From Escherichia coli (GTDB taxonomy: Bacteria; Pseudomonadota; Gammaproteobacteria; Enterobacterales; Enterobacteriaceae), in NCBI RefSeq assembly GCF_003334355.1, contig NZ_QOWP01000010.1: a stretch of 64,000 nt of DNA. One strand, written 5' to 3'. Position numbers and translations under genes: made by a program. Under the pieces are notes generated by a model that ran no database searches, had not been told where the DNA came from, and worked only from the letters and a program-made list of their open reading frames with translations. Positions 2,043-55,692 of this stretch are shown one piece after another. How positions within the stretch are numbered: the first letter of the stretch is position 1; each line of letters opens with the position of its first letter.

Positions 2043-2130
2043 TGGCGGAAGCGCAGAGATTCGAACTCTGGAACCCTTTCGGGTCGCCGGTTTTCAAGAC
2101 CGGTGCCTTCAACCGCTCGGCCACACTTCC
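2043..2130 (-). tRNA. serT: tRNA-Ser (anticodon UGA), 88 nt with long variable arm and encoded CCA
   Basis: Reverse complement GGAAGTGTGGCCGAGCGGTTGAAGGCACCGGTCTTGAAAACCGGCGACCCGAAAGGGTTCCAGAGTTCGAATCTCTGCGCTTCCGCCA; anticodon loop CTTGAAA gives anticodon TGA; class II tRNA. Confidence 0.93.
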
Positions 2131-2556
2131 GGAATGACGCGCACTATAAACATCCCGATGCGGCGTGTAAACCCCTAATTTGTTTGTTTGCCTGAAAAAC
2201 AGCCAAAAGTGCATTGATAGCGTGAAATAACAGCAGATTGATCATTTCATCACCATGAATTCCTTCTCTTTTACTCGTTTAGCAACCGGCTAAACATCCC
2301 CACCGCCCGGCCAAAAGAAAAATAGGTCCATTTTTATCGCTAAAAGATAAATCCACACAGTTTGTATTGTTTTGTGCAAAAGTTTCACTACGCTTTATTA
2401 ACAATACTTTCTGGCGACGTGTGCCAGTGCAGAAGGATGAGCTTTCGTTTTCAGCATCTCACGTGAAGCGATGGTTTGCCTTGCTACAGGGACGTCGCTT
2501 GCCGACCATAAGCGCCCGGTGTCCTGCCGGTGTTGCTAGGAGAAGAGACGTGCGAT

Positions 2557-3675
2557 ATGAATAACGAGGAAACATTTTACCAGGCCATGCGGCGTCAGGG
2601 CGTTACCCGGCGCAGCTTTCTCAAATATTGTAGTCTGGCTGCCACGTCGCTGGGATTAGGCGCGGGAATGGCACCAAAGATTGCCTGGGCGCTGGAGAAC
2701 AAACCGCGCATTCCGGTGGTATGGATCCACGGTCTGGAATGCACCTGCTGTACCGAATCTTTTATCCGCTCCGCTCACCCACTGGCGAAGGACGTCATCC
2801 TTTCCCTTATTTCTCTCGATTACGACGATACTTTGATGGCTGCCGCCGGAAACCAGGCGGAAGAAGTCTTTGAAGACATCATCACGCAATACAATGGCAA
2901 ATATATCCTCGCAGTAGAAGGCAATCCGCCGCTGGGCGAGCAGGGGATGTTCTGTATCAGCAGCGGTCGACCGTTTATTGAGAAACTCAAACGTGCCGCT
3001 GCCGGAGCCAGCGCGATTATCGCCTGGGGAACCTGCGCGTCCTGGGGCTGCGTGCAGGCCGCGCGGCCCAATCCGACGCAGGCAACGCCTATCGACAAAG
3101 TCATCACCGACAAACCCATTATCAAAGTACCTGGCTGCCCGCCGATCCCGGATGTGATGAGCGCCATCATTACTTACATGGTGACCTTTGATCGCTTGCC
3201 AGATGTCGACAGAATGGGCCGTCCACTGATGTTTTATGGTCAGCGTATCCATGATAAATGCTATCGCCGCGCTCACTTCGACGCCGGAGAGTTCGTCCAG
3301 AGTTGGGATGATGACGCTGCCCGCAAAGGTTACTGCCTGTACAAAATGGGCTGCAAAGGGCCTACCACCTATAACGCCTGTTCCTCCACACGCTGGAATG
3401 ATGGCGTTTCTTTTCCAATCCAGTCTGGTCACGGCTGCCTGGGCTGTGCGGAAAATGGTTTCTGGGATCGCGGTTCGTTCTACAGCCGCGTGGTCGATAT
3501 TCCGCAAATGGGTACTCATTCCACCGCCGATACCGTCGGTTTAACCGCGCTTGGCGTGGTGGCAGCGGCTGTTGGTGTGCACGCAGTCGCCAGCGCCGTT
3601 GACCAGCGCAGACGTCATAACCAGCAACCTACAGAAACCGAACATCAGCCAGGCAATGAGGATAAACAGGCATGA
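2557..3675 (+). CDS. hyaA: hydrogenase 1 small subunit (Tat signal RRSFLK), 372 aa
   Basis: ORF 2530..3675; known N-terminus [23 protein letters not shown] at ATG 2557; stop overlaps hyaB start (ATGA). Confidence 0.95.
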
Positions 3676-20819: not shown

Positions 20820-21104
20820 ACAAATTCCTTACTGAAAATACTGCGCTGCACTATACGGGGTTAATAAAATAAAGCCAGCGATATTTAAGACCGCCGGACG
20901 GCTAAAATAAAATTTGCTTAATCTCAATTATCATGCGTTAATAGCTGCGTCGGTTTGAAAGACAGACAGCATACAAAGTAGTTTACTAAAGCAGTTCTCA
21001 TTATCAGGCATTATCCCCTTCTTTTGAGTCTCTCTCCTGAACACTAAGTAGTTTCTGTATTAAAGCCCTGTTTGCCGAAAGGCCCAAAATGAAGGAAGTA
21101 AAAT

Positions 21105-21317
21105 ATGTCTAATAAAATGACTGGTTTAGTAAAATGGTTTAACGCAGATAAAGGTTTTGGCTTTATCACTCCTGATGATGGCAGCAAAGACGTTTTCGTC
21201 CATTTCACCGCCATCCAGAGCAATGAATTCCGCACGCTGAACGAAAATCAGAAAGTTGAATTTTCTATTGAGCAGGGGCAACGTGGCCCCGCGGCAGCGA
21301 ACGTTGTTACGCTCTAA
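21105..21317 (+). CDS. cspG: cold shock protein CspG, 70 aa
   Basis: [41 protein letters not shown]..., strong RBS, long AT-rich 5' leader upstream. Confidence 0.92.
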
Positions 21318-21516
21318 GGTTGCCATTATTACTCAACATCTCCATTTCCGCTGTCCATGTTGTCATGGTTCACAGTACCGCACATCGGCATTCGATGTGA
21401 CGGAGCGAAACCCTTTGGGCGCTAAGTGTATTTTTTGTAAATCGACGATGATCACCTTTGATAACGTCGCGCTGCAAATACGCACTGACCATGCGCCGCT
21501 GGATTTCACAAAATAA
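21256..21516 (+). CDS. ymcF: small Cys-rich (CPCC...CIFC zinc-ribbon-like) protein immediately downstream of cspG; true start uncertain, probably downstream of the cspG stop; ymcF assignment tentative
   Basis: Track ORF 21256..21516 ends [57 protein letters not shown]; position downstream of a csp gene matches the described small protein YmcF; no in-frame ATG between the cspG stop and the Cys motifs. Confidence 0.4.
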
Positions 21517-21721
21517 TATCAGGCTCCCTCGTGGAGCCTTTTTTATATCTGCCTTATTTTTCTTCAACGCTGTATGTATAGTAAGCGATAACCTGTTGAT
21601 TATTGAATCTTTCGGGGAGATGGCTTATAACATTTCTTACCTGACCAGGGTACCGGGAACCAACACCTTACTGGCGTGTTGCTGTCTTTTAAGACCAGAA
21701 GAGGTTAACAGTGAATATTGA
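21491..21721 (+). CDS. ymcE: small protein YmcE (Sfa), 76 aa
   Basis: ORF 21458..21721; known N-terminus [25 protein letters not shown] at ATG 21491; 3' end overlaps the gnsA start. Confidence 0.5.
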   Translation: MRRWISQNNIRLPRGAFFISALFFFNAVCIVSDNLLIIESFGEMAYNISYLTRVPGTNTLLACCCLLRPEEVNSEY

Positions 21722-21884
21722 AGAGTTAAAAAAACAAGCCGAAACGGAAATCGCCGACTTTATCGCGCAAAAAATCGCCGAGCTGAACAAGAATACAGGG
21801 AAAGAAGTCTCTGAAATTCGCTTCACCGCACGAGAAAAAATGACCGGGCTTGAAAGTTATGATGTCAAAATCAAAATAATGTGA
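21711..21884 (+). CDS. gnsA: GnsA (secG/fabA suppressor; reported toxin-like small protein), 57 aa, GTG start
   Basis: Manual translation from GTG 21711: MNIEELKKQAETEIADFIAQKIAELNKNTGKEVSEIRFTAREKMTGLESYDVKIKIM; GAGGT RBS at 21701-21705. Confidence 0.85.
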   Translation: MNIEELKKQAETEIADFIAQKIAELNKNTGKEVSEIRFTAREKMTGLESYDVKIKIM

Positions 21885-54627: not shown

Positions 54628-55692
54628 ATGGTAACGTCCTGTACTGGACATGTTTTAGATAATCAACGCGCCACCACTCGCGGAGTTTTCTCCTCCGGTA
54701 GTCATCTCGTCACTTTGCATTTTCAACCTCATCCTTTCTTTTCATGTGTTACCGACGCCGTAAACGGTGCGCGTAGCCGTTTTTCGGCATTTTATCCAAA
54801 AGCAAACTATGGCTTACAAGGAAGCCAACCCTCTGATGTTCGTGCGCATAATCGCGCTGCCAACGGCGCGTGTGATGAATACAAACAACTCAAGGTGCTC
54901 TCCATGGGAAGACAAAAAGCAGTGATCAAAGCTCGTCGCGAGGCAAAACGTGTGCTGAGACGGGATTCGCGCAGCCATAAGCAGCGTGAAGAAGAATCGG
55001 TCACCTCGCTTGTGCAGATGGGCGGCGTAGAAGCCATTGGTATGGCCCGCGACAGTCGCGATACTTCGCCCATCCTCGCGCGAAATGAAGCGCAATTGCA
55101 CTATCTGAAGGCTATTGAGAGTAAGCAGCTGATATTCGCCACGGGCGAAGCCGGGTGCGGAAAAACCTGGATCAGCGCAGCAAAAGCGGCAGAGGCCCTG
55201 ATACATAAGGATGTCGACAGGATTATCGTCACCCGTCCAGTTCTGCAAGCCGATGAAGATCTTGGCTTCTTACCTGGAGATATCGCAGAAAAGTTTGCTC
55301 CCTATTTTCGCCCGGTCTACGACGTGCTGGTCCGGCGCTTAGGGGCTTCCTTTATGCAGTACTGCCTGCGACCGGAAATAGGGAAGGTGGAAATTGCGCC
55401 GTTCGCCTATATGCGTGGACGTACCTTTGAAAATGCAGTCGTCATTCTTGACGAGGCGCAGAATGTGACTGCCGCGCAAATGAAAATGTTTTTAACCCGC
55501 CTCGGGGAGAACGTGACGGTTATCGTCAACGGTGATATCACGCAATGCGATTTGCCTCGCGGCGTGTGCTCCGGATTAAGTGACGCGCTGGAACGTTTCG
55601 AAGAAGATGAAATGGTTGGGATCGTCCGGTTCGGTAAAGAGGACTGCGTACGTTCGGCACTTTGCCAACGTACGCTGCATGCCTACAGTTAA
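54628..55692 (+). CDS. phoH: phosphate-starvation-inducible ATPase PhoH (Walker A GEAGCGKT), 354 aa
   Basis: Full ORF MVTSCTGHVLDNQRATTRGVFSSGSHLVTLHF... Confidence 0.9.
   Translation: MVTSCTGHVLDNQRATTRGVFSSGSHLVTLHFQPHPFFSCVTDAVNGARSRFSAFYPKANYGLQGSQPSDVRAHNRAANGACDEYKQLKVLSMGRQKAVIKARREAKRVLRRDSRSHKQREEESVTSLVQMGGVEAIGMARDSRDTSPILARNEAQLHYLKAIESKQLIFATGEAGCGKTWISAAKAAEALIHKDVDRIIVTRPVLQADEDLGFLPGDIAEKFAPYFRPVYDVLVRRLGASFMQYCLRPEIGKVEIAPFAYMRGRTFENAVVILDEAQNVTAAQMKMFLTRLGENVTVIVNGDITQCDLPRGVCSGLSDALERFEEDEMVGIVRFGKEDCVRSALCQRTLHAYS

Follow-up and report, generated by a model that had tools for sequence, protein, structure and literature searches.

Two genes, infC and pcnB, are still described as the only genes of Escherichia coli that start with AUU (PMC5499595; 10.1101/063800). 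Initiation at AUU is 6-8 times weaker than at AUG, and at the thrS-infC junction (UAA GGU AUU), reinitiation and de novo initiation contribute about equally (PMC3592434). mRNAs with an AUU start are poor competitors, most of all in the cold, and they are subject to repression by IF3, whose ratio to ribosomes goes up when the temperature falls (PMC5499595). The ymcF gene resembles infC in that a conserved AUU follows shortly after an upstream stop codon (thrS UAA GGU AUU versus cspG UAA GGU UGC CAU UAU U), although the distance from stop to start is 3 nt for infC and 10 nt for ymcF. The autoregulation of infC by IF3 and the limited expression of pcnB were shown experimentally, whereas the AUU of ymcF is supported by annotation and comparison. 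Contrary to the statements that restrict AUU to infC and pcnB, ymcF and its paralogue ynfQ lie on cold-shock messages and have annotated AUU starts that are strongly conserved. Our reading, in which we have good confidence, is that the cspG message carries ymcF as its second cistron, that ymcF starts at AUU 21328 and that it encodes a Cys4 zinc-ribbon protein at low output, probably coupled to the termination of cspG translation.

Identity of ymcF and the message that carries it

All positions refer to the window, which is the whole stretch of 64,000 nucleotides that was analysed and is 100% identical to MG1655. A preliminary description had noticed a Cys-rich ORF in a frame other than that of cspG and had compared the arrangement to YmcF. 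The frame indeed differs from that of cspG (21105-21317), the ORF comprises 86 codons (21256-21516, +), and its frame stays open over 21241-21516. The likeness can be stated more firmly, as the ORF at 21328-21516 (+) is ymcF (b4723) itself, beyond mere resemblance. RefSeq annotates an ATT-started ymcF at exactly these coordinates in thousands of E. coli genomes under the name 'cold shock small protein YmcF' (YP_009518761.1 / WP_071524879.1), and the locus was found in 5417 of 5426 complete E. coli genomes. Residues 1-62 of YmcF correspond to positions 1-62 of the PF23641 'YmcF-like' model (E 1.7e-49, 166 bits), and YmcF keeps the core of that model, including GAKCIFCK, in columns that are invariant or near-invariant in two alignments. 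Neither ymcF nor its family nor the ATT start is new. Because ymcF and its start are present in RefSeq and Pfam, no new gene is added here.

YmcF homologues occur across the Enterobacteriaceae, including Salmonella, Citrobacter, Klebsiella, Enterobacter, Kosakonia, Raoultella and Leclercia. There are 191 hits in genomes and 181 in viral sequences. The family is small: a profile search of 1.84 billion representatives returned 42 matches at E <= 0.001, all of which belong to the YmcF family. No family was matched in PHROGs, and neither that search nor Foldseek against the PDB, the PDB profile search or the search of 1.84 billion representatives gave a functional lead. The literature that was found on ymcF, ynfQ, b4723 and b4724 consists of gene lists and transcriptome mentions, and no experimental study was found; the ymcF locus is absent from the main text of the tetracycline start-site paper, and ynfQ is classed as uncharacterised in the 2024 y-ome paper. 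The entropy at the first, second and third codon positions of ymcF is 0.44, 0.25 and 1.22 in the alignment of species loci, and pN/pS is 0.13-0.16 at a saturated pS of ~0.75, with a value of 0.12 for the adjacent csp. Judged by these substitution patterns, ymcF is a genuine protein-coding gene under strong purifying selection. Two entries carry labels from outside the enterobacteria, probably through contamination or mislabelling. Locus L058 ('Chryseobacterium sp. 18061') contains an enterobacterial csp-ymcF pair whose junction is closely like that of Citrobacter sp. 18056 (L059), and protein P0028 ('Aeromonas hydrophila') has the sequence of E. coli YmcF (100% identity).

ymcF would have no promoter of its own, and its message would begin near 20949 and end at the hairpin and T-run at 21521-21547 (Table 1). 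The elements at 20914-20942 are presumably the cspG promoter, by analogy with the cspA promoter. The promoter-region block ATGCGTTAAT is conserved in an alignment of csp leaders and lies just upstream of 20949, where the match to the Rfam model starts. This match to the cspA thermoregulator (RF01766) extends over 20949-21371 and reaches 159.3 bits, where the gathering score is 78 (E 1.3e-41). A terminator scan detected no terminator between cspG and ymcF. The only terminator-like site that it detected on the + strand is the one behind ymcF, with the hairpin proper at 21521-21539 followed by the T-run. As ymcF shares the cold-shock leader of cspG and the terminator behind it, YmcF synthesis would follow the build-up of cspG mRNA at low temperature. 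In RNA-seq, ymcF, ymcE and cspG move together (PMC10920338), and YnfR is induced by cold shock (PMC6001520).

Table 1. Features of the cspG-ymcF region, in positions of the window
Feature	Position	Strand	Details
cspG promoter, putative	20914..20942	+	-35 TTGCTT 20914-20919, -10 GTTAAT 20937-20942, 17-nt spacer
cspG 5' leader, cold-shock thermoregulated	20949..21104	+	RF01766 match
cspG CDS, 70 aa	21105..21317	+	NF007378 CspG equivalog, 179 bits vs cutoff 144; RefSeq
TAAGG, cspG stop fused to Shine-Dalgarno-like AAGG	21315..21319	+	8 nt upstream of ymcF start
ymcF (b4723) CDS	21328..21516	+	62 codons plus TAA; RefSeq, PF23641, 137 homologues, pN/pS 0.13-0.16
ymcF start codon ATT (AUU)	21328..21330	+	RefSeq CDS start, alignment of 80 species loci
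First zinc knuckle (predicted), C9-P-C11-C12, then H13	21352..21363	+	C9, P10, C12 (near-)invariant
Second zinc knuckle (predicted), C34-I-F-C37	21427..21438	+	C37 invariant, C34 nearly
ymcE	21491..21721	+	NF007379, 187 bits vs cutoff 163; RefSeq; neighbour, outside ymcF
Intrinsic terminator-like hairpin AGGCTCCCTCGTGGAGCCT plus T-run	21521..21547	+	5 nt past ymcF stop; terminator scan
gnsA	21711..21884	+	RefSeq; phrog_2301, E 1.1e-33; last of cspG-ymcF-ymcE-gnsA

ymcE starts inside ymcF, whose final 26 nt it shares, and its coding sequence continues through the terminator hairpin (…IRLPRGAFFI…). The 21-aa YnfR, encoded after ynfQ (L084 8189-8254, -), spans the equivalent hairpin (MKAPSGAFLLGV…). 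Because ymcE and YnfR are coded across the hairpin, the 'terminator' would be leaky or would double as coding sequence. In Salmonella enterica subsp. diarizonae, a match to STnc220 (RF02077, 102 bits; L014 2647-2726, +) covers the 3' end of the ymcF homologue and the terminator, which suggests that the csp-ymcF message yields a 3'-UTR-derived sRNA in Salmonella. The other Rfam matches in the window are Ysr251 at 55494-55687 (-; 189 bits), naRNA4/CssrE at 32054-32132 (-; 69 bits) and ES036/CssrF at 38009-38051 (-; 38.5 bits, narrowly over the threshold), together with a tRNA at 2046-2130 (-).

The start codon of ymcF

Which codon initiates ymcF? The preliminary description had named 21256, inside cspG, as the only in-frame ATG. 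This was a misreading: the codon is TTG, and the frame contains no ATG before 21448. Nor is 21256 the sole conventional candidate, as TTG 21268, GTG 21283 and TTG 21304 also lie in frame inside cspG. The rest of the description of this junction was accurate. The cspG stop at 21315-21317 is TAA, no in-frame ATG, GTG or TTG occurs from there to the first Cys codon at 21352, and the two ATT codons proposed as non-canonical starts exist at 21325 and 21328, the second of which is the RefSeq start. Of the two solutions that had been offered, a non-canonical start stands, at ATT 21328, on RefSeq and comparative grounds, and an overlap with cspG is disfavoured by upstream stops and by the synonymous sites of csp.

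The codon aligned to 21328 was read in a sample of 80 loci, one per species. It is ATT in 42 of these loci, ATG in 31 and ATC in three; the remaining four have another codon, each with an ATG within three codons. In many ATT loci, including those of several Kosakonia, Citrobacter MGH106, C. amalonaticus, Siccibacter turicensis and Pluralibacter gergoviae, an in-frame stop lies 12-30 nt upstream and no ATG, GTG or TTG intervenes. ATT is therefore the sole possible start in those loci. Among the 40 loci that are linked to an upstream csp, bases -13 to -9 read TAAGG (25 loci), TGAGG (8 loci) or CTAAG (7 loci); the CTAAG class has its stop at -12, again followed by GG. When the 24 non-identical csp-linked loci with a stop at -13 are aligned, T(A/G)AGG at -13 to -9 is invariant, as are the A and the first T of ATT, and the spacer from -8 to -2 is variable. 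This pattern, with AUU or AUC conserved at the aligned start and no canonical alternative, is that of an AUU gene. The comparison supports AUU 21328, 10 nt after the UAA of cspG, as the codon at which ymcF translation begins. A conserved hairpin that occludes the ymcF start, which would explain coupling, was considered as well and rejected: for 16 diverse junctions, the RNAalifold consensus had an energy of -1.2 kcal/mol and lacked compensatory pairs.

Translation in K-12 could instead, or in addition, begin at the adjacent ATT 21325 to give a 63-aa protein, which we consider quite unlikely. K-12-type sequence has ATT ATT in tandem, and a distance of 5 nt between AAGG and ATT 21325 would still be workable. 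However, the 21325 codon is GTT in five other Escherichia loci and widely variable beyond, and all ATG-type homologues, like the Pfam model, begin at the codon aligned to 21328.

Slightly less likely again is a start at one of the TTG or GTG codons inside cspG (21256, 21268, 21283 or 21304), which would produce a protein of 70-86 aa through an out-of-frame overlap with cspG. In E. coli, these codons are in frame without a stop before 21328, GTG 21283 has the G-rich CAGGGG 5-10 nt upstream, and some database entries carry such extensions (70-71 aa). Because no stop interrupts the frame for 90 nt upstream and TTG and GTG codons occur in it, a minor longer isoform could exist in E. coli. However, in 12 of the 24 non-identical csp-linked loci, the ymcF frame is closed by a stop no more than 72 nt upstream, in some cases at -12 or -21. 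Moreover, the third positions of csp are no less variable in the would-be overlap (entropy 1.26-1.49) than elsewhere (1.08), the residues of the extension are unconserved, and the Pfam model does not include them. Given the upstream stops and the unconstrained third positions of csp, there is no conserved extension into cspG, and the data favour a start at 21328.

Far less probable than either alternative is a CspG-YmcF fusion in which ribosomes read through the cspG stop, or shift by +1 there, and independent initiation plays no part. CUC-UAA is not known as a slippery context. ymcF does lie in the +1 frame relative to cspG, with the stop 10 nt upstream, and a genomic in-frame csp-ymcF fusion exists in C. 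sedlakii. However, the frame relation varies, since the stop is mostly at -13 and is at -12 (in frame) in seven loci; stand-alone ATG-type copies with their own Shine-Dalgarno sequence are found in many genera, and the spacer from the stop region to ATT varies freely. Just as improbable is an untranslated ORF that represents the cspG 3' UTR and terminator and owes its annotation to a propagated prediction: experimental literature on ymcF was not found, the Rfam cspA model reaches 21371 and gene callers frequently omit ymcF, but pN/pS is about 0.15 at saturated synonymous sites, the Cys pattern is invariant across many genera, and strong Shine-Dalgarno sequences precede the stand-alone ATG copies.

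The predicted zinc ribbon and the ynfQ and phage relatives

The two Cys pairs to which the preliminary description had drawn attention are present, with Cys codons at 21352, 21358 and 21361 (CPCC) and at 21427 and 21436 (CIFC). Their expected conservation is borne out, as C9, C12, C34 and C37 are invariant or nearly so in alignments across Enterobacteriaceae, and C11 and H13 are conserved at >= 90% in YmcF alignments. The CPxC and CxxC knuckles are about 20 residues apart, in a Cys4 pattern. An AlphaFold2 model of YmcF from 90 sequences has a pLDDT of 75.9 overall and about 90 in the core, and was preferred to a run from 35 sequences (pLDDT 55), which was set aside. The top structural matches to the model are weak ones to zinc ribbons (best Foldseek PDB E 0.99), and the ribbons of TFIIE-alpha, TFIIB and ribosomal eL43 are the nearest known systems of this type. 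The zinc-ribbon-like character proposed earlier agrees with CPxC...CxxC, the AlphaFold2 core and the weak TFIIE-alpha/TFIIB matches. The first ~43 residues of YmcF are consistent with a predicted Cys4 (CPxC...CxxC) zinc-ribbon-type module that would bind metal. As a guess, YmcF may be a small nucleic-acid-binding or protein-binding zinc ribbon that acts alongside Csp and has a role in cold adaptation.

A PDB profile search with YmcF gave motif-level matches alone, to UvrA and Rieske proteins. Membership in the Rieske [2Fe-2S] proteins was rejected, as the match is a short box-II-like CPcCHGSqY (E 0.04-1) and box I (CxH) is missing. YnfQ was modelled as rubredoxin-like in a 2026 review (PMC13348028).

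The counterpart downstream of cspI, which had been suggested as a check on the Cys spacing, is ynfQ (b4724) in the Qin prophage. It has 62 codons, its product and YmcF are 66% identical and agree fully in Cys spacing, and it starts with ATT 10 nt past the TGA of cspI (TGAGGTAGACAAT ATT), in a TGAGG-N8-ATT geometry. A hairpin and T-run similar to the ymcF terminator lie 3' of ynfQ. ynfQ differs from ymcF in that it is prophage-borne and has a diverged C-terminal tail. The gene order cspG-ymcF-ymcE-gnsA parallels cspI-ynfQ-ynfR-ynfN-gnsB of Qin. The name ynfQ requires caution, as the 'ynfQ' of VanOrsdel 2018 is a 37-aa ORF between ydfJ and ydfK that is now ynfT (NC_000913.3). This ORF is located at L084 2891-3004 (+), and the current ynfQ, which encodes 62 aa, is located at L084 8257-8445 (-). 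YnfU (b4776) is likewise small, Cys-rich (CPxC) and encoded in Qin near cold-shock genes; it was rejected as a paralogue, as it has no BLASTP similarity to YmcF and ynfU lies elsewhere in Qin, not downstream of cspI. YmcF scores 17.4 bits (E 0.003) against NF047912 (ECs_2282 / YnfU putative zinc-binding family), below the cutoff of 37.

The csp-ymcF-(ynfR)-ynfN-gns cassette, or a shorter form of it, is found in 79 of 80 IMG/VR loci, and in lambdoid phages such as Tritos it is located just after the lysis genes. In seven of nine phage records, no + strand CDS corresponds to the ymcF/ynfQ homologue, probably on account of the ATT start: five have nothing annotated at the site, HannyBb has an antisense ORF alone, and the record of Klebsiella phage ST11-VIM1phi8.3 was not inspected. 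In phage HannyBb (L086), the homologue occupies 2501-2689 (+), and an antisense ORF at 2545-2745 (-) is annotated instead. ymcF is an example of how a non-canonical start conceals a conserved gene from gene callers.

Probable coupling to cspG and the switch of the start codon

How would ribosomes reach AUU 21328? The junction consists of a 10-nt gap and a TAAGG that overlaps the stop, and this short spacing is conserved in all 40 csp-linked loci. On the evidence of this geometry, cspG and ymcF are probably translationally coupled. The cspG stop codon would double as part of a weak Shine-Dalgarno sequence (UAAGG). Ribosomes that finish CspG would reinitiate at AUU 21328, with some de novo initiation in addition, and the weak AUU would hold YmcF output low and bound to cspG translation. 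We propose such low-level termination-reinitiation because of the published behaviour of AUU and infC and the like logic at UAA GGU UGC CAU U AUU. The weakness of AUU in the cold is an awkward fit for a cold-expressed gene unless low output is intended.

The start codon covaries with the upstream context, which lends indirect support to coupling. In the 40 species loci in which a csp ends 12-13 nt upstream, the start is ATT or ATC in 39 and ATG in one, and in the 40 species loci with no csp directly upstream, it is ATT or ATC in six and ATG in 34. Fisher's p is 5e-15 with phylogeny ignored. Clustering of the upstream sequences yields about 10 context classes, and all csp-linked copies belong to one homologous class; the association is suggestive and not phylogenetically independent. 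All 77 evaluable viral loci are csp-linked and start with ATT (74 loci) or ATC (three loci). ATT is retained in three uncoupled context classes (L040/L063/L068, L057/L078 and L075). The single csp-linked ATG exception is C. sedlakii, in which the csp stop has been lost and csp reads in frame into ymcF. Therefore, no ribosome terminates beside the ymcF start in this species.

In Citrobacter sedlakii NBRC 105722 (L019 2297-2689, +), csp is degenerate, with VFVPSS for VFVHF and loss of the RNP2 motif; the potential Csp-YmcF fusion ORF is 130 aa long, and the codon at the customary start of ymcF is ATG. In Enterobacter, Leclercia, Lelliottia and Pluralibacter, the ATG-type copies are immediately preceded by a promoter and leader homologous to those of cspG/cspI, in most cases together with a strong AGGAG, and ymcF is, as predicted from this layout, the first cistron of a cold-shock-type message in these genera. 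A remnant of a csp 3' end (…aatgttgtagcaaa…aggctaacatc ATG) occupies -30 to -1 in three ATG-type loci, the second copy of Citrobacter braakii (L082), Raoultella (L051) and Klebsiella (L033), in which the csp ORF has been lost or is found 440-750 nt upstream. The remnant suggests that the three copies descend from a csp-linked ancestor. In L040 and L068, which lack csp and start with ATT, a 9-codon mini-ORF (ATG AAA AAA GG..AC TAT TAT TAC TAA, about -19 to +7) extends across the ATT start to a stop 7 nt beyond; it is absent from L063. The mini-ORF may substitute as the upstream ORF for coupling in L040 and L068.

Tentatively, the AUU start can be viewed as a selected regulatory device, not a historical accident, that ties YmcF synthesis to csp termination and possibly to the IF3-to-ribosome ratio. 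AUU or AUC has been kept in 39 csp-linked species loci and 77 phage loci despite saturated synonymous sites, and most lineages without an adjacent csp stop have changed to AUG with a strong Shine-Dalgarno sequence. This comparative switch of the start codon may be new. If this view is correct, ymcF and ynfQ would raise the number of natural AUU-start genes in E. coli K-12 from two to four and would be the earliest of these with a link to the cold-shock response. The switch to AUG upon loss of the upstream csp provides a directly testable hypothesis on reinitiation at weak start codons.
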